Shown here: positions 4,072 through 32,075 of the stretch, one piece after another
Layout: the number at the start of each line of letters is the position of its first letter
Position numbering within the stretch: the stretch's first letter is position 1
NCBI GenBank assembly: GCA_029259155.1
Contig: JAPDJI010000001.1
Location: forward strand, 32,001 to 96,000
Reading direction: 5' to 3'
Source of the DNA: Candidatus Methanomethylicia archaeon
Lineage (GTDB): Archaea; Thermoproteota; Methanomethylicia; Nezhaarchaeales; B40-G2
DNA length: 64,000 nucleotides
Program-made: the position numbers and the translations under genes
Notes under the pieces: model-generated
Told to the model about the DNA's origin: nothing
Seen by the model: only the letters and a program-made list of their open reading frames with translations
Database searches by the model: none

Positions 4072-4613
4072 AGGATTTGAGCTACGAGAAGCTCCAACAG
4101 ATAGTAAAGGGAGGCTTGACGGCTCTGGTTTACGGTGGAAGTGCGCTTGAGAGGATCGAGTACCTCATGGAGGTGGCTAAGCTAGCCTTAAAGGAGGGCT
4201 CCTTCGCCCTCTACTTCTCTATCTATGAAGGATCCACGTTCCTCATAGTGGATGTCGCCTCGAGAAAGGGGTTGGAGAATTTACTCGACAAGATCTACGT
4301 TGCTATACTACCTCTAGATGTCGCGAAGCTTGGAAAGGTTATCGAAGCTCTCCGGGGCTTATTGAACGAGGAGAAGTTAACTCTAATCGTCTACGACCAG
4401 GTCTTTACAGCCATTTATTACACGTCGCTGGGCGATCCTGAGGTCAAGAGTAGGCTTAACACCTTGCTGTCAATGGTTAAGGCTCTTTCAAGGAAACATG
4501 GATTCTGCACCTTACTGCTAGACAGGGCTAAGGTGGATGGTTCTCCTCGAACTCCTCGTTTTATTTTAAGGTATGTAGACGAAAGCGTATCTTTACGCTC
4601 AGTCAACGTTTAG
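4068..4613 (+). CDS. Degenerate RecA-fold (RadB/KaiC-like) protein, probably catalytically inactive
   Basis: GGLTALVYGGSALERIEYL (Walker A position lacking GKT), ALYFS, LIVYDQV (Walker B position), LKALS-like helix and C-terminal YVDESVSL. GTG overlaps the SWIM stop (GTGA). Confidence 0.55.
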   Translation: MKDLSYEKLQQIVKGGLTALVYGGSALERIEYLMEVAKLALKEGSFALYFSIYEGSTFLIVDVASRKGLENLLDKIYVAILPLDVAKLGKVIEALRGLLNEEKLTLIVYDQVFTAIYYTSLGDPEVKSRLNTLLSMVKALSRKHGFCTLLLDRAKVDGSPRTPRFILRYVDESVSLRSVNV

Positions 4614-4991
4614 GGAGGAGGGCTTGGTTTCCATAAGTATGTTTTTTTCCTCCGTAAATGAAGGGGCACATATACACCAGAACTTGAGCTCCCTATTGCC
4701 ATTATTCACGGCATAGTGAACAGCTCCTTTAGGTATCAATACACAGTCTCCACGTGCAACTTTAAAGATCTCGCCGTCCACGTATACCTCTCCTTTCCCT
4801 TCAATGACTAGGTAGAGCTCCACGAAGTCGTGGTGGTGGCTTAAAGTGGCTTCACCTGGCTTAACGGTAGCTAGAGCTAAGCTGACCTCATAAGTGTTGG
4901 TCGGCCTAATACCTATGAGTTCTATTACTTCAGCCCCATCGGGAGCTTTCACTCTTAGCCCTTTGCGAAGGTTTCTCTTAACAGGCTTCAA
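4599..4991 (-). CDS. Cupin domain protein
   Basis: PGEATLSHHHDFVELYLVIEGKG...GDCVLIPKGAVH cupin motifs. Confidence 0.85.
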   Translation of the reverse strand: MKPVKRNLRKGLRVKAPDGAEVIELIGIRPTNTYEVSLALATVKPGEATLSHHHDFVELYLVIEGKGEVYVDGEIFKVARGDCVLIPKGAVHYAVNNGNRELKFWCICAPSFTEEKNILMETKPSSLNVD

Positions 4992-17640: not shown

Positions 17641-20568
17641 ATGGCCACTACGCCATCTTCAGTTCAGTTAAACTGGCAGGAGATCGAGGAGAAATGGAGG
17701 AGACGCTGGGAGGAGGCTAAGGTATTTGAAGCGGACCCTGACCCATCGAAACCTAAATACTACTTAACGGTCGCCTACCCTTACCCCAATTCACCTCAAC
17801 ACATCGGTCACGGTAGAACCTACACGATTACGGACGTCTATGCTAGGTTCTTGAGGATGAAGGGGTTCAACGTTCTCCTCCCTATGGCTTTCCATTACAC
17901 CGGTACACCTATCTTAGCCATGGCTAGAAGGCTAGCTTCGGGGGATGAGGAGCTCAGTGAAACCTTCCTCAAGATTTACAAGGTACCGGAAGAGCTATTA
18001 TCAGAGTTTACAGACCCCTTGAAGATTGCTAGGTATTTTCATGAGGAGATCAAGGCCGGAATGAGAGAGATTGGATACTCCATCGACTGGCGTAGGGAGT
18101 TCACCACGATAGACCCTGAATATAACCGGTTTATCGAGTGGCAGTTCCATAAGCTTCACGAGAGAGGCTTCATAACTAAGGGAAGCCACCCTGTAGGCTG
18201 GTGTCCTAAATGTCAGAACCCTGTTGGCCAACACGACACTAAAGGTGATGTAGAGCCTGAGATAGGCCAGTTTACCTTAATCAAGTTTAGGCTAAGCGAC
18301 TTCATATTGCCCACCGCTACGCTTAGGCCTGAGACGGTTTTCGGAGTAACCAACCTCTGGCTTAAGCCTAATTCGCGCTACGTTAAAGCGAAGGTGAATG
18401 GAGAGACCTGGCTCATAAGCCCTAAATGCGCGGAGAAGCTTATTTTCCTCAACTTTAAGGTAGAGGTTCTTGAAGAGGTTGATAGCGATCAAGTCATTGG
18501 TAAACAAGCCGTAAACCCCGCTACGGGACGAAGAGTACTGGTGCTTCCAGGAGACTTCGTAGACCTAGACAACGCTACAGGAGTAGTTATGTCAGTACCT
18601 GCCCACGCGCCTTACGACCTAGTGGCTTTAAGGCAGTTAAAGGGAGCCTCGGCCATACTTGAACGTCATGGTTTAAGCCCTGAAGAAGTTGTTAAGATTG
18701 AGCCCATACCGATTATCTCTACACCGGGCTATGGCGAAGTACCAGCAGCTACTGTTGTGGATAAGATGGGTATTAAAGATCAGCTCGACCCTAAGCTGGA
18801 AGATGCCACTAAGGAACTCTACAGGGTAGAGTTCCACTCAGGGTTAATGAAGGACAATACAGGGCCCTACGCAGGCTTATCGGTTGTTGAAGCGAGAGAC
18901 AAGGTCAAGGAAGATCTAGCTAAAGCAGGCGATGCAAGTTTCATGTATGAGCTCCTCAATCGCCCCGTGCACTGTAGGTGTGGAGCAGAGTGTGTGGTGA
19001 AGGTTTTTGAAGATCAGTGGTTCATAAACTACGGTGACCCTGTCTGGAAGAAATTAGCGCATGAATGCCTAGATAATATGAGCTTCATACCTGAGGAGCT
19101 CAGGGCAGAATTTAGTTATGTTCTGGATTGGCTGAAGGAGAAGGCTTGCGCCCGCCGGTCAGGGCTTGGAACGAAGCTCCCATGGGACCCTGAATGGATC
19201 ATTGAGAGCCTCTCAGACTCCACGATATACATGGCGTACTACACCATAGCTAGCGTGATAAAGAAAAAGGAAGTGAAGGCAGAGCAGCTTACCGACGAGG
19301 TCTTTGACTACGTTTTCTTAGGTAAGGGGACAGTCACGGATATTTCGATTAAGACTGGCATACCTGTAGATACTTTAGAGGAGATGCGGCGTCAGTTCAC
19401 TTATTTCTATCCATTGGATAGTAGGCATTCAGGTAGAGATCTTTTATGGAACCACCTGGCCTTTATGGTGTTTAACCACGTAGCTATCTTTCCGCGTGAA
19501 CACTGGCCTAAGCAGATCGTAGTTAATGGAAGTGTGTTGATGGAAGGCAAGAAAATGTCCAAGTCCATGGGAAACATCATTCCGCTGAGGGAAGGCATCA
19601 AGGTTTATGGAGCTGATCCTCTAAGACTGGCGCTCTTAATATCAGCTGAGTTGATGGCTGACGCTGACTTCAGCCCTGCTCTAGCTAAATCGATGGATGA
19701 GAGACTACGCCGCCTCTACGGCCTAGCTTCCTGGGTAATAAGTCTCGGAGGCTCGCCCAATAACTTAAAACTTATTGATAAATGGTTGCTCAGCCGTCTT
19801 CAAAGATATGTGAAGGCAGCTACTGAAGCCATGGAGAAGGTACGAGTCAGGGAGGCCTGTCACGTAGCCCTCTTCAACATCGACCGAGACCTTCAATGGT
19901 ATCTTAAGCGCTGCTCAAGAGACCTTGAAGACGGAGCTAGAAGAGGAACCGTGGCAGATGTACTAAAGAAAGCCCTAAACATTCAGGTCAGGCTGCTGGC
20001 ACCTATGGCACCACATCTCTGCGAGGAAATATGGGAGATGATGGGAGAGGAAGGTTTCATTTCTGTGGCTGCTTGGCCCAGCTTTGACGAAAGCCTAGTG
20101 GACGTAGAGGCCGAGCTTGCGGAGGAGCTAATTAAATCCACACTCGAGGACGTTAAAAGCATCTTAGAGGTATTGAAGACTAGGCCCGCATCAGCTCATT
20201 TCTATGTAGCCTCTGACTGGAAGTGGAAGGCTTACAGGATAGTGGCGGACGCTCTTTCTAGGGGCTTAGAGCTCGGGGTGGTCCTCAAGGAGACCATGGG
20301 TAAGGAGGAGTTTAGGAAGATAGGTGGAGCTGCAGCAAATTGTGTCAAACGTATTTACAGCTCTCTCCTCGAGCTACCACAGGAAGAGAGGTCGAAGAGA
20401 GCTTCTATTAAAATAGATGAATACGAGGTGCTTAATGAAGCCAAACCCTTCTTTGAGAAGGAGCTTGGCTTGAGGATCTATATCTACAGGGAGGATGAGT
20501 CTAAGTACGACCCAAAAGGAAAAGCGCAGCAAGCGCTTCCATACAGGCCAGCCATCTACCTAGAATAG
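17641..20568 (+). CDS. leuS: Leucine--tRNA ligase (archaeal/eukaryotic type)
   Basis: AYPYPN..HIGH, TLRPET, GVVMSVPAHAP, SLSDSTIY, KMSKS. Confidence 0.97.
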   Translation: MATTPSSVQLNWQEIEEKWRRRWEEAKVFEADPDPSKPKYYLTVAYPYPNSPQHIGHGRTYTITDVYARFLRMKGFNVLLPMAFHYTGTPILAMARRLASGDEELSETFLKIYKVPEELLSEFTDPLKIARYFHEEIKAGMREIGYSIDWRREFTTIDPEYNRFIEWQFHKLHERGFITKGSHPVGWCPKCQNPVGQHDTKGDVEPEIGQFTLIKFRLSDFILPTATLRPETVFGVTNLWLKPNSRYVKAKVNGETWLISPKCAEKLIFLNFKVEVLEEVDSDQVIGKQAVNPATGRRVLVLPGDFVDLDNATGVVMSVPAHAPYDLVALRQLKGASAILERHGLSPEEVVKIEPIPIISTPGYGEVPAATVVDKMGIKDQLDPKLEDATKELYRVEFHSGLMKDNTGPYAGLSVVEARDKVKEDLAKAGDASFMYELLNRPVHCRCGAECVVKVFEDQWFINYGDPVWKKLAHECLDNMSFIPEELRAEFSYVLDWLKEKACARRSGLGTKLPWDPEWIIESLSDSTIYMAYYTIASVIKKKEVKAEQLTDEVFDYVFLGKGTVTDISIKTGIPVDTLEEMRRQFTYFYPLDSRHSGRDLLWNHLAFMVFNHVAIFPREHWPKQIVVNGSVLMEGKKMSKSMGNIIPLREGIKVYGADPLRLALLISAELMADADFSPALAKSMDERLRRLYGLASWVISLGGSPNNLKLIDKWLLSRLQRYVKAATEAMEKVRVREACHVALFNIDRDLQWYLKRCSRDLEDGARRGTVADVLKKALNIQVRLLAPMAPHLCEEIWEMMGEEGFISVAAWPSFDESLVDVEAELAEELIKSTLEDVKSILEVLKTRPASAHFYVASDWKWKAYRIVADALSRGLELGVVLKETMGKEEFRKIGGAAANCVKRIYSSLLELPQEERSKRASIKIDEYEVLNEAKPFFEKELGLRIYIYREDESKYDPKGKAQQALPYRPAIYLE

Positions 20569-20579
20569 TAAAATGCGAA

Positions 20580-21734
20580 TTAAACCTCCTCTCTGAGGAT
20601 TTCTTTTAGATCTCTCATAAACCTGGTGATGTGTCTAAGTTTGACGTGAGGCATGACCACGATCCTTATGAAACCTCTAACTGTTGATATGGCCCATCCC
20701 CTCCTACGGAGCTTCTCAGCCACAGCTTCAACCTTTACTCCGTCGAAAGTTATCCCCACTACGTTCATTACAGGCTTTCTGACTAGCCTAGCCTTAGGGA
20801 TACGTTCAACCTCAATAGCGATTATCTCAGTGAGCTCCATGCATCTAGCCACTACTTTCCTGTAACCTTCTCTTCCGAGGTGTTTGAAGAGTGCCCAAAC
20901 AGCTATGGCTGAAGCCCCGGGCCTCGTGCCGGTAATGGTATATTGGAGAGCAGGCCCCCCACTCAGGTATGGTAGGTTAAAGCTTAAAGGTTTCAATGAT
21001 TCCTCATCCCTGAAAAGTATCCCTCCTGCCGGTATAGGTACCATACCCATCTTGTGAGGGTCTACAGTTATCGAAGCCACCCCCTGAAGCTTAAAGTCGA
21101 AGTCTGGAACCTTGTAGCCTAGTTCCTTCAGGAAAGGGATGACGAGACCTCCGAAGGCAGCATCGACGTGTAGGTGTATATCATAGCTTAAGGCAAGCTC
21201 GCTAAGTTCAGGAATAGGGTCTATGACGCCTAGATCGGTGGTTCCAGCTATGCTCACTATGGCTGCGGTATCATCATTAATGAGCCGTCTAACTGCGTCT
21301 ACGTCGACTTCACCCTCCTCAGTGACTGGTGCTTTAACTAACTTTAACCCCAATAAGGCAGCTGCTTTATCTATTGAAGCATGGCAGGAGGCGGAGGCCA
21401 CTACTTGTCTTTTGTTTAGTTTATCCCTAGCTGACCATAAGGCGAGGATGTTTGCTTCACTCCCCCCTGAGACGATGAAGCCAGGGGCGTCGGGTTTAGA
21501 CATTAATGAAGCGAGCATGCATATTGCTTCTCGCTCCACCTCTACGGTTCCTTGGAAGAGGCCTGGGTCTCCAAGGTTCTTTTCGAGGTGCTTCTGGAAT
21601 ACTTCTTTAGCGAAGGGGTGAGGCTTAGTACACATAGACCCTAATATGAGGCCTGAAGTGTAGGTTAAGTCGCGTTTAAGCTTCTCGCTTAATTGCTTCA
21701 AAACCTCCGCTTGATTCATCCCTCTTTCATCCAA
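20580..21734 (-). CDS. mfnA: PLP-dependent L-aspartate/L-tyrosine decarboxylase (MfnA/ADC)
   Basis: ILGSMCT.PH, NLGDPGLF, SGGSEAN, HVDAAFGG, VDPHKMG, GTRPG. Last gene of the CoA operon. Confidence 0.92.
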   Translation of the reverse strand: MDERGMNQAEVLKQLSEKLKRDLTYTSGLILGSMCTKPHPFAKEVFQKHLEKNLGDPGLFQGTVEVEREAICMLASLMSKPDAPGFIVSGGSEANILALWSARDKLNKRQVVASASCHASIDKAAALLGLKLVKAPVTEEGEVDVDAVRRLINDDTAAIVSIAGTTDLGVIDPIPELSELALSYDIHLHVDAAFGGLVIPFLKELGYKVPDFDFKLQGVASITVDPHKMGMVPIPAGGILFRDEESLKPLSFNLPYLSGGPALQYTITGTRPGASAIAVWALFKHLGREGYRKVVARCMELTEIIAIEVERIPKARLVRKPVMNVVGITFDGVKVEAVAEKLRRRGWAISTVRGFIRIVVMPHVKLRHITRFMRDLKEILREEV

Positions 21735-21755
21735 GCGAAAAAGCCTCCCTGCAGG

Positions 21756-22547
21756 CTAAAGGGATAAAAGCACGCCTTTCTCTGCTAGTTCAGCCAATCT
21801 TTCAAGGATGTGAGCTATTGCTTCGCTCAAGACCTGCTTGTTATCGTAGTTTTCAATGTTCTGCCTCAGCTCATCGATAGGTACTTTACGTAAAGCTCTA
21901 GCCTCCTCTACCATTCTAGGCAACGCCCTTACTACGTTGTCTACAATGGTCACCGAGGCGGTTTGCGCCGTCCTGCTTAAAGGGTTCAAGTCTATCGCTA
22001 TCACAGTTTTACCTAGACGTCTCAAAGCGTCTGTGCGATCTCCGTCTTCAAGGGGTACTAGGACAACATCGGCTTTAAAGATACCTTCTGGGTCAACTTT
22101 TCTACGCTCACTCTGTAGCTCAGGTATCTTAGCTGAGGCGGCTTCACCTACGCCCAACACTTGTGTAGCTCCAGCCTTCATTAATGCCTCGGCTATGAGC
22201 TCCTCTCTACGTTTAGACCTATAGAAGAGATTGACTTCAAGCTTAGCTTTTACTTCCTTAGCTAGCTCAACGAGACTTTCAGCAGCTAAGGCAGCTGTGT
22301 TACCGTTAACCGATATCACTGGGTATTTGGCAAGAAGTAGATGGGCTACTGCTGCTTTGATAGCCTTGAGCGCGTAAGGCTGGGTTTGTTCACCTATCAG
22401 GTAATCGAAGGCTTCACCTCTACCGTGAGCTATCAGCCCAGCCTCGACGACCAGCCCTTTCTTATAGCCTTCTGTTAACCTATGTCTAATCTTAAGCGAC
22501 TCTGCTCGTGGATGGTCTGGAGGTATGGTTTCTACTAATTCCTCCAC
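21756..22547 (-). CDS. pps: 4-phosphopantoate--beta-alanine ligase (phosphopantothenate synthetase)
   Basis: HPRAESL, GLIAHGRGEAFDYLIGE, SVNGN, EVNLFYR, VPLEDGDR, IDLNPLSRT. Confidence 0.95.
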   Translation of the reverse strand: MEELVETIPPDHPRAESLKIRHRLTEGYKKGLVVEAGLIAHGRGEAFDYLIGEQTQPYALKAIKAAVAHLLLAKYPVISVNGNTAALAAESLVELAKEVKAKLEVNLFYRSKRREELIAEALMKAGATQVLGVGEAASAKIPELQSERRKVDPEGIFKADVVLVPLEDGDRTDALRRLGKTVIAIDLNPLSRTAQTASVTIVDNVVRALPRMVEEARALRKVPIDELRQNIENYDNKQVLSEAIAHILERLAELAEKGVLLSL

Positions 22548-23440
22548 CTTACTCCCTCCATAGCTTTGACTAGTTTCGTTAAGGCCTCGTTTAATGGGGC
22601 CTCCATACCTACCTGTTGAGCTGACCTCACTATAGCTCCATTTATGTAGTCCACCTCCGTCCTCTTCTTCCTTTCAAGGTCCTGCAGCATGGAGTTCTTG
22701 TTATTAGCAGTATCCTTCGCTACCTTAAAGGTCAACTCGACAGGATCTATGCCTAGCTCAACCCCCATCTTTTTAGCTATACTCGCTCCTTCCTCCACGA
22801 CCGCCTTCATGAGGCTCCTTAGCCATCCAACCTCCAAAAGCTCTCCATTCCTAAGCCCAGTTATAGCTCCTAATGGGTTTATGCCTGCATTCACTAAGGT
22901 CTTTATCCACACCACTTCCGCTATGTTGTCTACCTTCCTAGCCGGCAAGCCCGAAGCGTTAAGCATGGTTACTAGTTTCTCCATGAGAACTCCACGTCCA
23001 CCGATCAGAGTTTCGCCTACGCCAGTATGAAGTACTGTTCCTGGCTGAGCTAACATTGCTCCATTGTTTGTCACCCCCCTAAACACCACTGTACCGAGTA
23101 CTCTGGAGGCCTCCTCTTCTACACCTAGCCCGTTCTGTAAACATAGAGGAACAGCTTGTTTCTCGACTAGTCTTTTAACTTGCTTGGCTGCTTCGGCCGT
23201 GTCGTAAGCCTTGACGGTTATCAACACCAGGTCGAAGTCTCCTTTAGCTTCTTCAGGTTTTTCGTGAGCATCCACCTTCACAGTGAAGCTGCCTAAAGGA
23301 CCCTCTACCCTAAGCCCTCGACTCCTTACAGCTTCTACATGAGCCCTCCTACCTACAAGCACCACCTCGGCTCCTGCTTTGGCTAAGAAGCCTCCCATGA
23401 GGCTTCCTATTGCCCCAGCCCCCATAATGAGGGCTTTCAA
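22535..23440 (-). CDS. panE: 2-dehydropantoate 2-reductase (ketopantoate reductase)
   Basis: GAGAIG, VKAYD, LQNGLG, W.K.LVNAGINPL, SMLQDLE...TEVDYING. Confidence 0.95.
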   Translation of the reverse strand: MKALIMGAGAIGSLMGGFLAKAGAEVVLVGRRAHVEAVRSRGLRVEGPLGSFTVKVDAHEKPEEAKGDFDLVLITVKAYDTAEAAKQVKRLVEKQAVPLCLQNGLGVEEEASRVLGTVVFRGVTNNGAMLAQPGTVLHTGVGETLIGGRGVLMEKLVTMLNASGLPARKVDNIAEVVWIKTLVNAGINPLGAITGLRNGELLEVGWLRSLMKAVVEEGASIAKKMGVELGIDPVELTFKVAKDTANNKNSMLQDLERKKRTEVDYINGAIVRSAQQVGMEAPLNEALTKLVKAMEGVRWRN

Positions 23441-23453
23441 GGTCTACCAACCT

Positions 23454-24767
23454 TTAACCGATGATTTTCTCCCATTTCTTTAACCGAAGTACTTGTGACA
23501 GCGTGCTTCCTCGCTTAATCTCCTCTCTGACTCTATTCTCTTTCTCCAAGACATCCATAGCTCTATTAGCCATCTCTACTGCTAGCTCTTGAGGTACTAC
23601 CACTACTCCGTTGTCATCACCTATTACCCAGTCCCCAGGCCTGATCTTCACTCCGCCGCATGTGATCTCCACGTTAAGCTCTCCGAAGCCTTTAGGGTCG
23701 CCGGCTGTTGGGTTGATGTGGCGGGCGAACGCTGGGAAACCCAGCGCCCTTATCTCATCAACGTCTCTAATCGCCCCGTCAATCACCACCCCTCTAATCC
23801 CCTTGACCACACAGCTCCACGTGGCCAGCTCGCCCCAGACAGCTTTTTCACCGCCTGAAGCGTCAATAACTATGACACTGCCTGGAGGAGCATGGTCTAT
23901 GGCCTCTACAGGCTTAGCCCAGTCGCCTGGATAGGTCCTAACGGTGAAGGCTCTCCCAGCCATTTTAGCTCCAGGCGTTATAGGCCTTATTTCCTTTAAC
24001 TCGCCTCTACGCTGCATCGCATCTGATACATTAGGGGTGGAGACCTTCATAAACACTTCATAGAGGTCCTCCTCGCCGTATTTCTTGTAAAGCTTGGTTT
24101 CTATTGGTTTCCTGGTCAACATGGCCTGCTTAACGACCTTGGCGGCTTCCTCGGCATTCTCGGCCTTTATTATAGCGCCTCCCACGATAATAATACTAGC
24201 TCCAAGCTCCACAGCTTTAGCCGCTGTTTCGCTATTGATCCCTCCGGCTATAGCCACGGGGCGTTGAACTACAGAGACCACTTGGGAAAGGAGCTGAAGC
24301 GGATCGGTACCTTTCATCTGTTGATCTATGCCTACATGTACACAGATGTAGTCTACCCCTAACTCCTCTACCTGTTTAGCTCTTTGCACAGGGTCTTCGG
24401 CGTTGATCAGGTCAACCATCACCCTGGCTCCATAACGCCTGGCAGCTTCCACAGCCTCGCGTATAGTAGAGTCATCGGCTACTCCTAGCACTATAACTAC
24501 ATCGGCTCCGGCCTTCGCGGCTATCTCTACCTCAGCGGCTCCGGTATCCATGGTTTTCATGTCAGCAACTATTACCTTGCCTGGGAAGCTTCTCTTAAGC
24601 CTCCTAACAGCCTCTAACCCCTCGCTCTTAATGAGCGGGGTTCCAGCCTCCACCCAGTCTACGCCGCCTCGAATAGCTTCTTCGGCTATTTCCAGCGCTC
24701 TATCTAGGTCAGGAAAGTCCAAAGCTAATTGAAGCGCAGGAGAGTGAGGAGACGGATTAAAGCTCAC
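23454..24767 (-). CDS. hxlA: 3-hexulose-6-phosphate synthase fused to an RraA/HMG-aldolase-like domain
   Basis: N-terminal HPS: LQLALD, EAGTPLIKSEG, ADMKTMDTG, HVGIDQQ. C-terminal RraA/MenG domain: NVSDAM, AVWGEL, VVIDGAIRDVDE, PGDWVIGDDNGVVVVP. Confidence 0.9.
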   Translation of the reverse strand: MSFNPSPHSPALQLALDFPDLDRALEIAEEAIRGGVDWVEAGTPLIKSEGLEAVRRLKRSFPGKVIVADMKTMDTGAAEVEIAAKAGADVVIVLGVADDSTIREAVEAARRYGARVMVDLINAEDPVQRAKQVEELGVDYICVHVGIDQQMKGTDPLQLLSQVVSVVQRPVAIAGGINSETAAKAVELGASIIIVGGAIIKAENAEEAAKVVKQAMLTRKPIETKLYKKYGEEDLYEVFMKVSTPNVSDAMQRRGELKEIRPITPGAKMAGRAFTVRTYPGDWAKPVEAIDHAPPGSVIVIDASGGEKAVWGELATWSCVVKGIRGVVIDGAIRDVDEIRALGFPAFARHINPTAGDPKGFGELNVEITCGGVKIRPGDWVIGDDNGVVVVPQELAVEMANRAMDVLEKENRVREEIKRGSTLSQVLRLKKWEKIIG

Positions 24768-25666
24768 TTCTCCACCACCCTTGCCCCATAGGGATCGATA
24801 CGTGAAGTGAAGTATCTTGTCTTAGGTAGAAAGGCGCCAAATACCTTCAATACCTCCTCTACGTCACGCTCTCTAACGAGAGCGAAGGCGACTCTCTTCT
24901 TGACAGAGAAGCCTAGGGCTCCAGCCTCGACCGAAGCGGCCATGAACTTTTTCAGAGCTGCGTCTACGAAGCCAACCTCCTCAGCGAAGCGAGCTGAAAG
25001 CTGGATAAACCTTGAAGGGGTGGGTTGAGCTAAGAAACTGCTTAGAGCCCACCTGCCAACTTTATTGATCTTCTCCTTCATGCTTGGGTTGGTGATCATG
25101 CTACTAGTTTTATAGATACCTAGTGGAGCACAAACCACGGTTATCTCAGAGCTCGGTACTTTCTCTACCAACCCTACGCCAGGAGCCCCTGGGCTCTTTC
25201 TAATCTCTAAGCCCCCTACGAGCTGGCCTGCTACGTCTCCTAAGCCTGTCCTATACTTCACCTCAGCTATGTGTGCTGCCTTTGCTGTCTCTACCTTTGT
25301 GAGCCCAAGCTTCAGTGCTTCGTTAACCGCTAAAGCCGTGCTTAAAGCTCCTGCGCCGCTAGAACCGAAGCCTGAACCTATGGGTACCTGGAACCTATGC
25401 GTTACCACCACTCTATAGGGTTTATCGGCTAGTTTAAGCAGCTCCTCTACGGTCCTCTTAGTCACCTTGAAGTCTACGACCTTTGAGCCTAGCTTAACCA
25501 CCACTATGTTCCTATGGCTTCGACGAACCTCTACCTCCGTAAGCACGCCTAGGTTAATGGAGACCCCTGCCCCCCTAGACCCTATTAAAAGGGGGTTGGA
25601 GCTTGTATCGCATATCTCGAAGAAGCCGGTTATGTGAGCTGGGCTAAAGGCATATGCCTTAGCCGT
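24764..25666 (-). CDS. pok: Pantoate kinase (GHMP family); start codon non-canonical (ACG proposed)
   Basis: Frame extends upstream of the listed ORF to the conserved AFSPAHITGFF...GSRGAG. Contains PIGSGFGSSGA and AHIAEV..TGLGDV. No ATG/GTG/TTG between the coaBC stop and the conserved N-terminus. Confidence 0.88.
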   Translation of the reverse strand, partial: TAKAYAFSPAHITGFFEICDTSSNPLLIGSRGAGVSINLGVLTEVEVRRSHRNIVVVKLGSKVVDFKVTKRTVEELLKLADKPYRVVVTHRFQVPIGSGFGSSGAGALSTALAVNEALKLGLTKVETAKAAHIAEVKYRTGLGDVAGQLVGGLEIRKSPGAPGVGLVEKVPSSEITVVCAPLGIYKTSSMITNPSMKEKINKVGRWALSSFLAQPTPSRFIQLSARFAEEVGFVDAALKKFMAASVEAGALGFSVKKRVAFALVRERDVEEVLKVFGAFLPKTRYFTSRIDPYGARVVEK

Positions 25667-25672
25667 GATCTT

Positions 25673-26926
25673 TCACCCCTTAAGCCTCATCCGCTCAGCA
25701 GCTATGTCTAATATCGCCTTAGCCACCTCCCTCTTCGAGGAGAGTGGCACGTGAACTATGCGACATTCCCTATCTATGATGAATACTTCGTTAGTATCAT
25801 GTCTGAACCCGCAACCCTTCCTGCTTAGGTCGTTAGCCACTATGAGGTCCATGTCGGCCTCCTCGAGCCTCTCGTAAGCCTTCTTGACCAGCTCTTCGTC
25901 TGAAACTCCATACTCTGCCTTAAACCCTATGAAGAAGGCTTTAGGAGCTAGCTTCCTGATGCTCATAGATATCTTAGGCCTAGGCTCAAGCTTAACTTCC
26001 AGAGTGGACGTGCCTGAAGGAATCTTATATGGGTAAGTGTGACTGAACCCATAATCTAGGGGCGCAGCGGCTAGGATGATGATATCGTAAGAGTTCTTAG
26101 AGATCTCCTCATCGACAGCATCATACATCTCCTTAGTGGTTACCACCTCTACTGCCTTGACCCCTGGAGGAGGGTTATATGTAGAGTTCGTGGGTCCTTT
26201 AATTAAGGTAACTTGTCCCCCTCTCCTCCAGGCTTCTTCGACTAGGGCAAACCCCATCTTTCCTGAACTGGGATTAGTTAAGTATCGGACCATATCCAGG
26301 GGCTCTAGCGTAGGGCCAGCGGTGACGAGGAACTTAAGTCCTTTAAACTGGTCTCTACGCTCCAAGAGATCTACAACCTTCTCCACGACCTCTGTGATGG
26401 GAGGTATCTTAGCCTTCCCCTCTTCCCACCTAGGTTCTACCACCTCCACACCCATCTCTTTAAGTAGAGCTAAGCTACGTTGAAACGCAGGGTTCTTGTA
26501 GAGAGAAGCGTGCATGGATGGAACGAGAACCACAGGTATACGTGAACCGAGGGCTGAAGCTACCACTGCTGTCACAGCGGTGTCACAGATGCCATGAGCT
26601 GCTTTACTGACCGTGTTAGCTGTAGCTGGAGCCACTAGGACTAGGTCGACCTTTCCCTCTCCTTCCCCAGCCAAGGCTATATGTTCAATGTTTCCCGTGA
26701 GCCTAGTAACCACGGGGTTACCAGTAGCCCACTCCATGAACTTGGGATGTATGAGCCTGCTTGCAGCTTTGCTCATAATGACGTAGACTTCTGCTCCAAG
26801 CCTCATTAACTCCCTAGCCAGCTCAGGACACTTATAGGCCGCAGCACTACCAGTAATACATAGAGCTATCTTTCGCCCTTTAAGGGTCTGTCCTTTAGTC
26901 CCTATGATATCCTTAGATGGGTGCAG
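25673..26926 (-). CDS. coaBC: Bifunctional phosphopantothenoylcysteine decarboxylase/synthetase; CTG start proposed
   Basis: N-terminus extends to (L)HPSKDIIGTKGQTLKGRKIALCITGSAAAYK. Contains APATANT, PSMH, VTAGPT.E..D.VRYLTNPSSGKMG, GFKAE, VANDL. Confidence 0.95.
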   Translation of the reverse strand: MHPSKDIIGTKGQTLKGRKIALCITGSAAAYKCPELARELMRLGAEVYVIMSKAASRLIHPKFMEWATGNPVVTRLTGNIEHIALAGEGEGKVDLVLVAPATANTVSKAAHGICDTAVTAVVASALGSRIPVVLVPSMHASLYKNPAFQRSLALLKEMGVEVVEPRWEEGKAKIPPITEVVEKVVDLLERRDQFKGLKFLVTAGPTLEPLDMVRYLTNPSSGKMGFALVEEAWRRGGQVTLIKGPTNSTYNPPPGVKAVEVVTTKEMYDAVDEEISKNSYDIIILAAAPLDYGFSHTYPYKIPSGTSTLEVKLEPRPKISMSIRKLAPKAFFIGFKAEYGVSDEELVKKAYERLEEADMDLIVANDLSRKGCGFRHDTNEVFIIDRECRIVHVPLSSKREVAKAILDIAAERMRLKG

Positions 26927-27309
26927 CGTTTAACACCGAGCCGCCGGGGCTCGTGCATAGTACGTTTGTATAGTGAAAAAACTTATGTAAGTAGGTTACC
27001 TACGATGTAGAAACCTATTATAACCTACGTAATCTTAGTAGATAAAAAGAAAACTAGACTAGTTCTAAGTTTTTTGATCGGCATAGAACCTTAAATGCTA
27101 CAAGTATAGTTTTTATAACTTTATAGTTGTTAATTAATCTCCATTTGGATCCCTTTTCTCCATTATAGATTAAGGAATTGCTGCCGATAAACTATACTTA
27201 CATTGCCTTGGCTGACAAAGCTCTTTGTAAGATGTAGACTATATCTTAGAATTTGAGTGTAAAAAGCTAATGGTGATGTGTTATTACGCCGTCTTTGTCC
27301 ACGAGCCGT

Positions 27310-28713
27310 CTACGTCACTATCTCAGGCAATAAGTTCTTCTTGCACGCTCTCCTAACTTCTAAGGCTATCCTGTCGCCCACGCTCATTCTGCGCTTATAC
27401 CTAGCTACAGCGTACTTACCGCCTACACCTAAGTGTACGTTTGCTCCTCCACCGTGGCGTAGAGCAACATCCTGGGTGTAGGGGACGTGCATATATGTTT
27501 CGGCTGCTTCAGGTACATCGTATAGGCCTAGCTTAACTCCCTCATAGACTTTTACCTTAGGTACCTTCGTCCAGGTGACGATCGTCTGAAGACACCAAGC
27601 TCCTATAATGCCTGGCGGCTCATAGAGCTGGGTAGCTTTAAGGAAAGCATTAGCAACTAAGTGGACGTCCTTCAACAACGACTCCCTTATCGAGAGGTCT
27701 CCATGGAAAGTTACCTCGAAGCTTAAGGGGTAGGGGGTTTTAGTCCAATCTATCTTGAGCTGGACGTCTGCTGGTAGCCTAATAACTCCGTCATGGGTGG
27801 TTTCACGCCTCTCATCTATGGAGAGCAGCTCGTTGGCTAGGTATGATCTAGCCTCCTCAATGGTTATACTGTATAGCTTGGAGTACCACTGCTCTACGTC
27901 ACCCCAGCTTTCCTTAGCGTTTATGGGTGAGTAGAAGAAGTTGAAGTTAGCGTGAGGTCCAGGTACGTATTCCTCGACACGGGCATATTGTAGGCCTTCT
28001 TCATCGAGGTGGCCTGCTTCAACCTCCTTTCTAACTTTTTCTTCTAAGTCGTCTGAGTTAGCGGCGAAGATGAAGCCTCTCTCGAACTTTCTATGGGCAA
28101 ACTCAGCCTTCAAGATTAAAGGCTGCTCTATCCTCTCCTCGAACTTTATCCCTGTCTTAACTACCTTGAACTTAAACGCTTTAGGATAAGGTATCCCAGC
28201 TTTCTCAGCGAACCAGTAGTAATCCTTCTCTATTTCACCGCGGTTCTCTATTTTAAGAAGTCTACGTGAGCCTACAATGGGCACGGCGAACTTATCCTCA
28301 ATAACGCTGCACTTCTCATCTCCACCTACGTATACGCTGAAGGCTCTGTTAGGTATTTGGAGGCACTGCAGTTCAAGGAGGTCATCCACGTACTTAACCA
28401 CGTCAGAATAGTGGTCGAAGATAACTATGCAGCTTCTCCATCCTTTCTTTTTCTTAGCGTCAGCTGGATCCTCCACCACTATCACATCTCTTCTCACTAG
28501 CTCAGGTAGATCTTCAACTTCCTCTTCAGATGAGCCAGCCATAGCGTTCTGTAGGTATATTCTGGCTCTATCCTTCGTGGTGTATATCAACGCCTTTAGC
28601 CCATAGTTCCTAGCTCCCTGCCAAGCATCGAGCGCGCTATGGGACCCTAGGATCAACAATGTTGGTTCTTTAAAGCGTGAAGCTACTTCCTGCATCTCTC
28701 TCCTATTAATCAC
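27310..28713 (-). CDS. purP: PurP-like ATP-grasp protein (formate-AICAR ligase family), long variant
   Basis: LGSHSALD, IPNRAF.VY, ERGFIFA, EEYVPG..NFNFFYS, E...HG..SIRESLL, PPGIIG.WCLQ, DVALR.GGG, G.RIALE. Confidence 0.8.
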   Translation of the reverse strand: MINRREMQEVASRFKEPTLLILGSHSALDAWQGARNYGLKALIYTTKDRARIYLQNAMAGSSEEEVEDLPELVRRDVIVVEDPADAKKKKGWRSCIVIFDHYSDVVKYVDDLLELQCLQIPNRAFSVYVGGDEKCSVIEDKFAVPIVGSRRLLKIENRGEIEKDYYWFAEKAGIPYPKAFKFKVVKTGIKFEERIEQPLILKAEFAHRKFERGFIFAANSDDLEEKVRKEVEAGHLDEEGLQYARVEEYVPGPHANFNFFYSPINAKESWGDVEQWYSKLYSITIEEARSYLANELLSIDERRETTHDGVIRLPADVQLKIDWTKTPYPLSFEVTFHGDLSIRESLLKDVHLVANAFLKATQLYEPPGIIGAWCLQTIVTWTKVPKVKVYEGVKLGLYDVPEAAETYMHVPYTQDVALRHGGGANVHLGVGGKYAVARYKRRMSVGDRIALEVRRACKKNLLPEIVT

Positions 28714-28916
28714 AGTCCTATCCCCAAAGTCACTACCATGCTACGCTTTAAAGAGGTTTCGAGGAGGGTGAATTTAGCTCCTTGGATGGTGCTGTTGAAT
28801 GTCAGCGAAGCGATAAAAGCTCTTATCCTCACATGTTCCCTGATGTTCTCTACCATTGAGGCAGAGCTTTTTTAATTACATATAGGAAAGATGGTTTCCA
28901 TTAAAGGTGAGGACAC

Positions 28917-29132
28917 ATGAAGTATGAGGTTGAAGTAGAGTTCCACAAGGATTTTATCAAGGTAGATGGAAGTAGAATCGTTGTCGGTTTAACCTCCAGG
29001 CCTGAAGGAGGTAAGGCCAACCTTGAACTAATTAAGAAGTTTGCTAAATACTTCAAAGTTTCCTCATCTCAAGTCAGGATACTGTCGGGTTTAAAGTCAA
29101 GGAGGAAGATAGTCGAGATAATCGAGAAGTAA
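28917..29132 (+). CDS. DUF167/UPF0235 family protein
   Basis: PEGGKANLELIKKFAKYF.V....V.ILSG.KSRRK; GGTGAGG RBS. Confidence 0.85.
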   Translation: MKYEVEVEFHKDFIKVDGSRIVVGLTSRPEGGKANLELIKKFAKYFKVSSSQVRILSGLKSRRKIVEIIEK

Positions 29133-29281
29133 AGTTTCCTCTAGCTCCCAGTCCAAAAGTTCAAGTTTCTTTACCTACGGGTTTAAAATGAGTAGCTCAT
29201 TTTAATGTCTATAGCTTGGGTAAGAAAAATTGGTTAACTTTAAAGAGAGCTACGAGTCAAAACTTTGACCGGCGAATAAGG

Positions 29282-29539
29282 ATGAAGCTTAAGGCTAGGG
29301 TAGAGATCAGGCTTAAACCAGGCTTAACCGATGCGGAAGGCCTAGCTACCCTTGAATCTCTACGGGACCTAGGCTTCAATGTCCTAGACGTGAAAGTGGG
29401 GAAGATCTTCTACATGGTGCTTGAAGCCCCCAACTTGGAGGAAGCGAGGCAGCAAGTGGACGTTATGTGTAAGAGGCTTCTGGCCAACCCTGAAGTCAAA
29501 GATGACTACACTTACACCGTGGAACCTGAGGAAGGTTAA
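29282..29539 (+). CDS. purS: FGAM synthase subunit PurS
   Basis: VEIRLKPGLTDAEG...VKVGKIF...MCKRLLANP..DDY. Confidence 0.92.
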   Translation: MKLKARVEIRLKPGLTDAEGLATLESLRDLGFNVLDVKVGKIFYMVLEAPNLEEARQQVDVMCKRLLANPEVKDDYTYTVEPEEG

Positions 29540-29690
29540 GCTAGATCTGCTATGACCATAACTGGCGGGCGAAAGTTTAAAGGAGTTCTCTAGGCCTCTC
29601 TTCTGCTTTTTATGGTAAAGTCCGGCGAAACCTTCGCTGCTCTCTTAAACCCTAAATCTAAAAAGCTCGAGATACATCTGCGGTAATGGT

Positions 29691-32075
29691 ATGCAGGGAC
29701 AAGGACAAAGCTACACATTGAAGGTTAAAGACGTACCCTTCGACCTTTATCTCATCGACCTCCTCAAGGCAGATGATGCGATGTTAATGAAGATCAGCGA
29801 CGAAATGGGGTTATCGTTAAGCCTAGAGGAAATGAAGGTTATTCAACGACACTATAAAGATCTCAAGCGACTACCAACCGACGTGGAGCTCCAGTCTCTG
29901 GGACAAGTATGGTCGGAGCATTGTTTTCACAAGACGTTTAAAGGTTATGTGATGGCAGGGCGTACGCGTGTGAAGAACATGCTTAGGCGCTTCATAGCTA
30001 AGGTCGTAGCGGAGCTTAAGCCTGAGTGGTGCGTGTCGGTCTTTGAGGATAATGCTGGGATCGTGGATTTTGGTGATGGTTACGCCGTAGCTATTAAGGT
30101 GGAGACTCATAACCATCCTTCAGCTATAGAGCCTTTTGGCGGCGCGGCTACGGGCGTAGGCGGAGTGATTAGGGATATCCTTGGAGTTTGGGGTGATCCG
30201 ATAGCTAATACGGATGTGCTGTGTTTTGGCCCGCTTGACTACAGTTACGAGAAGCTTCCTCGAGGGGTTAAGCATCCTCGCTACCTTTATAGGGGTGTTG
30301 TGGCTGGGATCGGCAATTACGGCAATAACATGGGCATTCCTACGGTGAACGGAGCAATCGTATTCGATGAGGGGTACGTGGGTAACGTCGTAGTTTACTG
30401 TGGCTGTGTGGGGATCTTACCTATTGATAGGTACTTGAAGTGGGCTAGAGAGGGTGATTGCTTGGTGCTTGCAGGCGGTAGGACTGGACGTGATGGGATA
30501 CATGGTGTAACTTTTGCTTCAGCCGAGCTTACTGAGGAGTCAGAGGAGGTTTCTAGGCCAGCAGTGCAGATACCTAATCCTATCGAGGAGGAGAGGCTTA
30601 AGAGAGCTATCTTAAGGATTAGGGATGAAGGATTAGCCACTGCTGTGACTGACCTAGGCGGTGGAGGGGTTTCCTGCGCTGTTAGCGAGACTGCTCACCG
30701 TTTCGGGCTTGGAGCTCAAGTATGGCTGGAGAAGATTCCGTTAAAGTATCCAGGACTGGCACCATGGGAGATCTGGCTGTCAGAATCTCAGGAGCGCATG
30801 TTACTGGTCTCGCCGCCTGATAAGGTAGACCGTTGCCTTGAAGCCTTCGAGGACGAAGAGGTTGAAGCCAACATCATAGGTAGGCTTACAGGTACCGGAG
30901 AGCTCTGCGTAGACTACCTTGGATACCGCGTAGCTACCTTGGACCTAGATTTCTTATTTAAGCCTCCCACTGTCACGAGAAGGGCTGAGTGGACTCCACC
31001 TGTCTTCGAAGAACCCTTCTTCAAGCCCCCTAAGGACTTAGGCGAGACCTTGCTTAAGCTCCTTTCCTCCCCTAACGTTTGTAGTAAGGAGGAGGCTGTT
31101 AGGACCTATGACCATGAAGTGAAAGGAGCCACTGCCGTTAAGCCATTCCAAGGGTTGAGGGCTGGTCCCAACGACGCAGCTGTGTTGAAGCCTATAGTAT
31201 CTTCTTGGAGAGGGATAGTGGTTTCCTGCGGCATTAAGCCTCGTTACGGTAAGATAGATCCCTACTGGATGGCGGCTTCGTCCATAGACGAAGCTATTAG
31301 GAATAACGTGGCGGTAGGCGGTAGACGAATAGCTTTGCTCGATAACTTTACGTGGGGCAACCCTGAGAAACCCGATAGGATGGGCGGCCTCTTAAGGGCT
31401 GTGAAGGCGTGCTACAGGCTCGCTAAGGCTTATGGTACGCCTTTCATATCAGGTAAGGATAGCCTATATAATGAATCCCCCCTAGGACCTGTTACCCCCA
31501 CGCTACTCATAACAGCTTTAGGCATAATACCTGACGTTAGGCTCGCCGTCACCTCAGACCTTAAGAGGCCAGGTAACCCATTATACCTCGTCGGCTTTAC
31601 GAAGGCTGAGCTGGGCGGCTCCGAGTACTATTCATTAATGAACATCCTCGGTAGGTCAGTGCCTAAGGTGTACATGCCTATGGCTAAGAGGCTGGTTGAG
31701 GCGATGGTTGAAGCTATCGACCAGCAGCTCGTTAAGGCTTGCCACGACCTCTCTGAAGGTGGTTTAGGCGTAGCGGCAGCTGAGATGGCTATAGGTGGAG
31801 GGTTAGGGATGGAACTATACCTAGCTCAGGTGCCTAGGCCTAAGTCTCTTAGACGCGATGACTTCATCCTATTCTCAGAATCGAATACCCGTTTCCTCGT
31901 GGAGGTTAAGGCAGATGCTGAGGAGGAGTTTGAGAAGGTTATGCGTGGTGTTCCACACGGTAAGGTGGGACAAGTTCTACGTGAGCCAACGTTAGTGGTT
32001 AGAGGCGTAAGTGGAAAGTTACTGATGGAAGTAGAGGTGAGCGAAGCTGAGAAGGCGTGGAAGAGGCGTCTTTAG
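29691..32075 (+). CDS. purL: FGAM synthase subunit PurL
   Basis: WSEHCFHK, DNAG, KVETHNHPSAIEPFGGAATGVGG, TGRDGIHG, DLGGGG, SESQERM, SGKDSLYN, HDLSEGG. Confidence 0.97.
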   Translation: MQGQGQSYTLKVKDVPFDLYLIDLLKADDAMLMKISDEMGLSLSLEEMKVIQRHYKDLKRLPTDVELQSLGQVWSEHCFHKTFKGYVMAGRTRVKNMLRRFIAKVVAELKPEWCVSVFEDNAGIVDFGDGYAVAIKVETHNHPSAIEPFGGAATGVGGVIRDILGVWGDPIANTDVLCFGPLDYSYEKLPRGVKHPRYLYRGVVAGIGNYGNNMGIPTVNGAIVFDEGYVGNVVVYCGCVGILPIDRYLKWAREGDCLVLAGGRTGRDGIHGVTFASAELTEESEEVSRPAVQIPNPIEEERLKRAILRIRDEGLATAVTDLGGGGVSCAVSETAHRFGLGAQVWLEKIPLKYPGLAPWEIWLSESQERMLLVSPPDKVDRCLEAFEDEEVEANIIGRLTGTGELCVDYLGYRVATLDLDFLFKPPTVTRRAEWTPPVFEEPFFKPPKDLGETLLKLLSSPNVCSKEEAVRTYDHEVKGATAVKPFQGLRAGPNDAAVLKPIVSSWRGIVVSCGIKPRYGKIDPYWMAASSIDEAIRNNVAVGGRRIALLDNFTWGNPEKPDRMGGLLRAVKACYRLAKAYGTPFISGKDSLYNESPLGPVTPTLLITALGIIPDVRLAVTSDLKRPGNPLYLVGFTKAELGGSEYYSLMNILGRSVPKVYMPMAKRLVEAMVEAIDQQLVKACHDLSEGGLGVAAAEMAIGGGLGMELYLAQVPRPKSLRRDDFILFSESNTRFLVEVKADAEEEFEKVMRGVPHGKVGQVLREPTLVVRGVSGKLLMEVEVSEAEKAWKRRL

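Follow-up and report, generated by a model that had tools for sequence, protein, structure and literature searches.

A hexulose-6-phosphate synthase–RraA-like fusion protein in a panB-less coenzyme A operon: a probable folate-independent ketopantoate synthase

The window analysed here is a 64,000-nucleotide stretch of contig JAPDJI010000001.1 (positions 32,001 to 96,000) from a Candidatus Methanomethylicia archaeon. On its minus strand, six genes of the coenzyme A (CoA) set lie head to tail between 20580 and 26926. One of them encodes a fusion of HPS (3-hexulose-6-phosphate synthase) with an RraA-like aldolase domain. This fusion is probably a ketopantoate-forming enzyme, which works without folate in the place of PanB (ketopantoate hydroxymethyltransferase). 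We are somewhat less sure that hexulose-6-phosphate serves as the direct one-carbon (C1) donor. We infer in addition that 2-oxoisovalerate is the nucleophile, that the fused HPS domain supplies the formaldehyde, and that the two sites are coupled. The support for the reading is strong and comes from comparative genomics, through gene distribution and gene order. A sequence-only reading of the window had described an operon coaBC–pok–fusion–panE–pps–mfnA, and this was borne out: all six genes were recovered in this order on the minus strand, at their positions and with matches to their families (Table 1).

The same reading had noted that panB was missing from the operon, and the absence extended to the genome. 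No PF02548 (PanB) match was found in the window's genome (1.55 Mb, 47 contigs, 94% complete), and the same search was positive in 11 of 14 control genomes. Within the window's phylum (301 genomes), the fusion was detected in 13 genomes (12 above the cut-off and one split over two contigs) and panB in 137; no genome had both and 151 had neither. In the archaeal phylum of genome G010, 137 of 201 genomes carried the fusion and 50 carried panB, with one genome holding both (G024) and 15 holding neither. The bacterial phylum of G074 (191 genomes) contained 17 fusion holders and 166 panB holders, none with both and eight with neither. These 17 fusion holders were found among only 25 panB-less genomes, and ten of the 17 lay outside the order of G074. 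For that order itself (64 genomes), the values were 57 for the fusion, one for panB, one for both (G408), and seven for neither; searching the whole class of G074 gave no genomes beyond those of the order. The 80 best-scoring fusion loci came from genomes of which three also had panB, so that three held both and none held neither.

One-sided Fisher tests of the fusion against panB gave p values of 3e-4, 4e-32, and 1e-18 for the window's phylum, the phylum of G010, and the phylum of G074, respectively. Since related genomes do not count as independent observations, these values are too strong. The real argument, above the p values, is the same exclusion pattern in three phyla and both domains. 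The expectation that the fusion would occur where panB is absent was supported, with both genes present in 0 of 13, 1 of 137, 0 of 17, 1 of 57, and 3 of 80 fusion holders in the five sets. The two genes are close to mutually exclusive. The suggestion that many methanopterin-using archaea lack panB and have the fusion was compared with a few cases: among the 14 control genomes, Methanosarcina acetivorans showed the fusion above the cut-off and no panB; Methanospirillum hungatei has an HPS-MenG fusion (PMC5241800); and Methanocaldococcus jannaschii had neither panB nor the full fusion.

The position of the fusion relative to panE (ketopantoate reductase) was compared in the 301-genome sample. 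panE was counted as a TIGR00745 match at E ≤ 1e-30, and adjacency was taken from manual comparison of coordinates. By this count, panE was present in 88 of the 301 genomes. In 12 of the 88, the fusion was the immediate upstream neighbour of panE, with both genes on one strand; these are 12 of the 13 fusion holders and belong to families f1, f2, f11, f14, and f38. panB was present in 71 of the 88 panE holders, and in 59 of these 71 it was within 300 bp of panE. Five panE holders had neither the fusion nor panB, and none had both. The partner of panE is either panB or the fusion, a case of gene displacement at one and the same site. Among the 80 best loci, panE followed the fusion in six (L001–L003, the Asgard loci L004 and L005, and L070 on a Poribacteria chromosome), and pps, pok, or coaBC was found close to it in L002, L003, L004, and L032. 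With this adjacency in 12 of the 13 phylum holders and 6 of the 80 loci, the CoA linkage was not unique to the window's genome.

The fusion and panE were also lost together. In genus g4, the two genes were adjacent in G234 and G325 and both missing in G227, G265, and G301, while pps was present in all five; G265 is assembled in two contigs and is 95% complete. In G087, G095, G119, and G265 (two of the four are single-contig), pps was present and searches for panB, the fusion, panE, and an RraA-like gene found none of them. Most simply, PanE and the enzyme that forms ketopantoate constitute a pantoate module, which was dropped by some lineages that salvage pantoate. We also considered that genomes with neither gene might use a third route to ketopantoate; this is unlikely, as four of the five genomes checked have pps without panE, panB, or an RraA-like gene; in the fifth (G159), pps was missing as well.

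Bacterial genomes provided a replicate. G074, G076, and G070 are labelled as complete chromosomes. panC was found in these three and in G053, with panD following it in G074 and G076; panE was found in G074, G070, and G053, and panB in none of the four. In Desulfobacterales-type loci, 6-phospho-3-hexuloisomerase (PHI) is encoded immediately upstream of the fusion, above the cut-off in four of four loci tested from a six-locus cluster. A PHI–fusion operon thus occurs in bacteria that have panC and panD but no panB. Judged by its family match, this PHI would be the enzyme needed to feed hexulose-6-phosphate to the HPS domain. The replacement of PanB by the fusion is supported by the displacement beside panE, by the shared loss of the fusion and panE, and by this bacterial replicate with PHI; panB did not routinely co-occur with the fusion, and its CoA linkage recurred outside the window's genome.

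Both domains of the fusion lie in one open reading frame without an internal stop, with PF00215 at residues 11–210 and PF03737 at residues 244–390. The whole protein matched NF005442 / PRK07028 (bifunctional hexulose-6-phosphate synthase/ribonuclease regulator) with 674.3 bits (cut-off 593) over model positions 3–428 of 430. Its AlphaFold2 model had a pLDDT of 93.2 and a pTM of 0.80. The HPS domain scored 235.6 bits against TIGR03128 (cut-off 200, residues 12–216), and its Foldseek match was PDB 3ajx, with a target TM-score of 0.92 and 42% identity. A D-x-K-x-x-D motif together with a metal-binding Glu is the hallmark of the OMP-decarboxylase suprafamily. In 58 aligned fusion sequences from archaea and bacteria, Asp69, Lys71, and Asp74 of this motif were invariant, as were Glu40 and His144.

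For the aldolase domain, the nearest solved relatives were 3k4i (E 3e-29) and the HMG/CHA aldolase 3noj (E 1e-27), and Foldseek gave target TM-scores of 0.85–0.88 to 3k4i and 0.81 to 3noj. In the HMMER alignment to 3noj, Arg334-Asp335 fell on Arg123-Asp124, Glu313 on Asp102, and Glu408 on Glu199. We take Arg123 of 3noj to be the catalytic Arg, Asp124 to be the metal-binding Asp, and Asp102 and Glu199 to be the water-holding acids. The aldolase signature E-x20-R-D-x2-E, which had been claimed for this domain, was upheld except at its end: Glu313, Arg334, and Asp335 were invariant in the 58 fusion sequences, but the last Glu (Glu338) varied. Glu408 was at least 90% conserved in the same set.

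The aldolase domain remained below the cut-offs of both HMG/CHA-type models, with 108.5 bits for TIGR02798 (cut-off 304.5) and 124.4 bits for NF006731 (cut-off 179). Its scores against the RraA models were also low, at 71.3 bits for NF006875 (cut-off 136) and 41.9 bits for TIGR02998 (cut-off 241). A reading of the domain as an RNase regulator was tried and failed on these last two scores. In its fold and its conserved active-site residues the domain is class II aldolase-like, but it forms a subfamily of its own. The scores under the equivalog cut-offs indicate that it is not orthologous to HMG/CHA aldolase.

In the proposed scheme, PHI, which is encoded elsewhere in the genome, would convert fructose-6-phosphate to 3-hexulose-6-phosphate, and the N-terminal HPS domain would cleave hexulose-6-phosphate to ribulose-5-phosphate and formaldehyde. 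The C-terminal RraA-like domain, as a class II enzyme with a divalent metal, would then join enolised 2-oxoisovalerate with formaldehyde to give 2-dehydropantoate (ketopantoate). PanE would reduce ketopantoate to pantoate and so pull the equilibrium forward. From pantoate, 4'-phosphopantetheine would be reached through POK, PPS (which the MfnA-type decarboxylase would supply with beta-alanine), and CoaBC. The net reaction would be fructose-6-phosphate + 2-oxoisovalerate + NAD(P)H to ribulose-5-phosphate + pantoate. Hexulose-6-phosphate would thereby take the C1-carrier role that methylene-tetrahydrofolate has for PanB. Because HMG/CHA aldolase acts on 4-hydroxy-2-oxo acids and ketopantoate is one of these, the domain would carry out the aldol chemistry of its relatives in the direction of synthesis. 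In vitro, 2-oxo acids are joined to free formaldehyde by metal-dependent 2-oxo-acid aldolases, including PanB (PMC10127515).

PHI (189 bits, cut-off 160) and ilvD were both present in the window's genome; therefore, both proposed substrates can be made. The genome also has a second HPS domain, which forms the C-terminus of an 834-residue protein. The N-terminal 610 residues of this protein are an aldehyde:ferredoxin oxidoreductase (AOR; AFOR_N + AFOR_C). Open frames of about 836–910 residues around HPS matches recurred in many relatives of the same class, and their domains were checked in the window's own genome only. The AOR–HPS protein would presumably oxidise the formaldehyde released by its HPS domain. 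Together with Fae-HPS, it is in line with a design in which the partner fused to HPS consumes the formaldehyde that HPS sets free. It would leave the HPS–RraA protein free for a specialised low-flux task. This fits the low HPS activity of the Methanospirillum hungatei homologue (HPS-MenG), which was given as 0.21 U/mg versus 6.05 U/mg for Fae-HPS in PMC5241800.

Several results weigh against the proposed function. On the chemical side, pyruvate is the nucleophile in those relatives of the aldolase domain that have been characterised, and use of 2-oxoisovalerate would require the pocket to admit a gem-dimethyl enolate. The HPS equilibrium favours hexulose-6-phosphate, and the scheme therefore depends on the pull by PanE. 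A literature search found no family member for which ketopantoate formation had been tested by biochemistry or genetics. In the distribution, both the fusion and panB were found in G019, G024, and G055 of the 80-locus set and in G408 of the order of G074, and 151 of the 301 genomes sampled from the window's phylum had neither. M. jannaschii lacks panB and the full fusion and gave an RraA-like match only; therefore, the fusion is not the sole alternative route. G351 was the only fusion holder of the phylum sample without an adjacent panE, and the neighbours of its fusion are a glycosyltransferase and ribosomal protein S6e. A strong panE was not found in the fusion holders G010 and G076 either. 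G093 has panB and a separate HPS match, and next to its panE lies an RraA-like gene that stands alone.

The neighbourhoods of the fusion add to these points. In 71 of the 80 best loci, many of them on short contigs, the flanks contained no homologue of the window's CoA genes, and two further loci showed an mfnA-like match only; the loci without CoA neighbours include most of those from Thermoplasmata and bacteria. Twelve Thermoplasmata-type loci (Table 1) have a same-strand gene for a protein of about 334 residues with DUF362 and a 4Fe-4S dicluster insert after the fusion. In several bacteria, the fusion neighbours were PHI, YjbQ, or HisRS.

A scavenging function for formaldehyde would account for some of these results, although we regard it as unlikely. 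Here the HPS domain would serve reverse ribulose-monophosphate pentose synthesis, the aldolase would dispose of the formaldehyde on pyruvate, with 4-hydroxy-2-oxobutanoate as the product, or on some other plentiful 2-oxo acid, reduction of the product would fall to the PanE-family neighbour, and the tie to CoA would be indirect. The use of pyruvate by the characterised relatives (3noj, HMG/CHA aldolase) agrees with it, as do the other HPS fusions, which are partnered with formaldehyde users or likely users, and the lack of nearby CoA genes at most of the 80 loci. E. coli KPR is described in PMC10127515 to reduce other 3-substituted 4-hydroxy-2-oxo acids. However, scavenging leaves unexplained the near-complete exclusion of panB in three phyla, the fusion in panB's site beside panE, and its joint loss with panE while pps stays. 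It would also leave bacteria with panC, panD, and panE but no panB without a source of ketopantoate, and the AOR–HPS fusion of the window's own genome could already handle bulk formaldehyde.

Slightly less probable again is a ketopantoate aldolase that is not coupled to HPS. In that case, ketopantoate would be made from free formaldehyde or another donor, and HPS would act separately as a formaldehyde buffer or sink or as an enzyme of pentose synthesis. Stand-alone RraA-like genes do exist. The gene in G093 (contig 10; panE homologue and RraA-like gene at L099:3194-4114 and 4118-4771, respectively) encodes 217 residues, is 40% identical to the window's aldolase domain, and starts 4 bp after the panE homologue in a genome with a separate HPS match. 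The RraA-like match of M. jannaschii without the full fusion points the same way, and free formaldehyde is accepted in vitro by both PanB and YfaU (PMC10127515). Against this stands the fusion itself, which was kept at 55–87% identity across archaea and bacteria in at least 584 loci. The PHI gene directly upstream in bacterial operons, with the fusion kept, points to a hexulose-6-phosphate feed, and fusion partners usually act on a shared intermediate.

It is very improbable that the RraA-like domain is a regulator ('ribonuclease regulator') or an oxaloacetate decarboxylase with accidental panE adjacency, as database names suggest (that of NF006731 includes oxaloacetate decarboxylation by HMG/CHA aldolases), because the RraA equivalog scores are far under the cut-offs, the domain retains the catalytic Arg-Asp pair and the long C-terminal helix that mark the aldolase form, and the adjacency recurs in six families of the window's phylum, at two Asgard loci, and on a Poribacteria chromosome.

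As a ketopantoate synthase, the fusion would resemble PanB (EC 2.1.2.11, PF02548) in the same predicted product, the same site beside panE, and a complementary distribution. PanB acts by metal-assisted enolisation of 2-oxoisovalerate, as is proposed for the fusion. In contrast, the two proteins differ in fold and are unrelated in sequence (the genome gave no PF02548 match). The C1 donor of PanB is 5,10-methylene-tetrahydrofolate, whereas that of the fusion would be hexulose-6-phosphate or formaldehyde. Their relation would thus be one of analogy and not of family membership.

The closest structural comparison is with HMG/CHA aldolase (LigK/PcmE type, 3NOJ) and PSPTO_3204 (3K4I), which share the long-form RraA-like fold with TM-scores of 0.81–0.88. 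The Arg-Asp pair and the acidic residues of HMG/CHA aldolase are aligned with those of the fusion, and both enzymes would act on 4-hydroxy-2-oxo acids. The differences are an identity of about 29–35%, the HPS domain carried by the fusion, and the proposed substrates, 2-oxoisovalerate and formaldehyde. RraA (RNase E regulator, NF006875), also listed as 'MenG', shares PF03737 with the fusion but differs from it in that the fusion scores under the cut-offs and carries the additional C-terminal helix seen in aldolase forms. For the RraA-like family, the methyltransferase name 'MenG' is a historical misnomer.

Other HPS fusions were also compared. HPS-PHI (PDB 9LJ9) joins HPS to the supplier of hexulose-6-phosphate. 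Fae-HPS is alike in that HPS is joined to a formaldehyde user, Fae taking formaldehyde to methylene-H4MPT (PMC5241800). Fae-HPS, HPS-PHI, and AOR–HPS dispose of formaldehyde or feed the C1 pool, whereas HPS–RraA would build formaldehyde into a cofactor precursor. The same two-domain architecture as in the window is found in Mhun0647 ('HPS-MenG') of M. hungatei (Kono et al. 2017, PMC5241800). In the accessible part of that paper, its second domain is called of unknown function, and no link to pantoate is drawn.

Within the operon, the genes are closely spaced. pok and the fusion overlap by 4 nt, the fusion and panE are separated by 13 nt, panE and pps overlap by 13 nt, and pps and mfnA are separated by 21 nt. 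The widest spacing of the set is the 126 nt between coaBC and pok. The operon is flanked by a convergent leucyl-tRNA synthetase gene and a PurP-like gene, both outside the CoA set. No Rfam RNA family was found in 18000–30000 of the window, and promoter-like and terminator-like sites were not more frequent than in shuffled sequence.

The individual assignments differ in strength. For pok, which had been named as such from the letters alone, the two best matches were both pantoate kinase models (NF041122, E 7e-35, and NF040725, E 5e-29), but both scored below the cut-off; the next family followed at E 5e-9. Its assignment as a pantoate kinase is thus a putative one, made through the best match. 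The gene is 59% identical to the syntenic gene of L002. The MfnA-type decarboxylase is the likely supplier of beta-alanine; MfnA-type enzymes decarboxylate aspartate. The characterised CoA genes of Thermococcus kodakarensis include a decarboxylase, 'GDC' (PMC6650551).

In coaBC, the TIGR00521 match covered residues 15–408 of the 417-residue reading. No ATG, GTG, or TTG precedes the conserved N-terminal motif, and an in-frame TAA is located at 26930–26932. The first canonical start is ATG 26806, and its use would remove the conserved N-terminal motif. The candidate starts after the TAA are CTG 26926, ATC 26908, ATA 26905, and ATA 26869. If the conserved N-terminus is kept, the start would be a non-canonical codon, and its position is uncertain.

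Table 1. Positions of the operon genes and fusion domains in the window, with related loci in other contigs
Feature	Location	Strand	Family match or content
coaBC (phosphopantothenoylcysteine synthetase/decarboxylase)	25673..26926	-	TIGR00521 365 bits, cut-off 220; PF02441 + PF04127
pok, pantoate-kinase-like GHMP kinase, 260 aa	24764..25546	-	PF00288; best NCBIfam matches NF041122, NF040725
HPS–RraA-like fusion, 437 aa, proposed ketopantoate synthase	23454..24767	-	NF005442; PF00215 + PF03737
HPS domain of the fusion, residues 9-222, 3-hexulose-6-phosphate synthase, OMP-decarboxylase fold	24102..24743	-	TIGR03128; PF00215
RraA-like class II aldolase domain of the fusion, residues 230-437 including C-terminal helix	23457..24080	-	PF03737 E 7e-52
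panE (ketopantoate reductase)	22535..23440	-	TIGR00745 277 bits, cut-off 141; PF02558 + PF08546
pps (archaeal 4-phosphopantoate--beta-alanine ligase)	21756..22547	-	NF041123 318 bits, cut-off 300; NF010324 373 bits; PF02006
mfnA-type PLP decarboxylase	20580..21734	-	TIGR03812 472 bits, cut-off 299
AOR–HPS fusion	G000 contig 16, L092:356-2860	+	AFOR_N + AFOR_C + HPS
DUF362/4Fe-4S loci, gene +1	L008, L013, L017, L018, L023, L026, L028, L033, L039, L043, L057, L068		

The PurP-like gene upstream of the operon (27310–28713, minus strand) encodes 467 residues with DUF1246 and DUF1297. It gave only piecewise matches to the NCBIfam PurP models, the best at 149 bits against a cut-off of 556, and looks like a divergent or insert-bearing form by these matches.

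The fusion family is large. At least 8000 family candidates were scored, all at E ≤ 0.001, and the best 120 were 63–100% identical. At least 584 genome loci of the fusion were confirmed, of which the best 80 were 55–79% identical. Archaeal labels among these 80 were Nezhaarchaeales, Hecatellales, Bathyarchaeia, several Asgard groups, Thermoplasmata, Altiarchaeales, DHVE2, and Alkanophaga, and bacterial labels were Desulfobacterales, Omnitrophota, Thermoleophilia, Planctomycetia, Firestonebacteria, and Poribacteria. The source annotations of the family were 'ribonuclease regulator', 'MenG', and 'orotidine 5'-phosphate decarboxylase'.

The clustering of neighbours at the 80 best loci covered all except L022, L037, L049, L054, and L079, where the fusion frame was missed by the ORF caller. 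A YjbQ/UPF0047 gene preceded the fusion in L041, L045, L060, L062, and L075 (gene −1) and in L069 (gene −2). The YjbQ-paired loci were labelled Omnitrophota, Planctomycetia, Firestonebacteria, and Thermoleophilia. In L041, L045, L060, and L062, the gene directly after the fusion (gene +1) encodes a protein that resembles Pta in its N-terminal half (AAA_26 + DRTGG).

The protein family itself is already known and catalogued, and its proposed function was not found in print. A literature search, with most subscription journals outside its reach, found no paper linking the fusion or RraA-like proteins to pantoate, and the fusion is not mentioned in the available parts of the CoA-pathway papers PMC6650551 and PMC7883664.

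For the prokaryotes that hold the fusion, it seems rather likely that hexulose-6-phosphate is the C1 carrier and that the fusion replaces PanB in most Thermoplasmatota-type archaea, many Thermoproteota, Asgard archaea, Methanosarcina-type methanogens, and whole anaerobic bacterial orders. Coenzyme A is universal, but for archaea and bacteria without PanB no gene is known to us for the first committed reaction towards pantoate, a gap of long standing. If the proposed function is true, this gap would be closed for PanB-less prokaryotes, and a misnamed family with thousands of members would receive a function. One mole of pentose phosphate would be tied to each mole of vitamin B5. Metabolic reconstructions that score the holders of the fusion as vitamin B5 auxotrophs would be corrected. 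The enzyme would offer a natural folate-independent route for formaldehyde into a 2-oxo acid, which would be of interest for C1 biocatalysis, and it would mean that a sugar phosphate can replace a pterin as C1 carrier.

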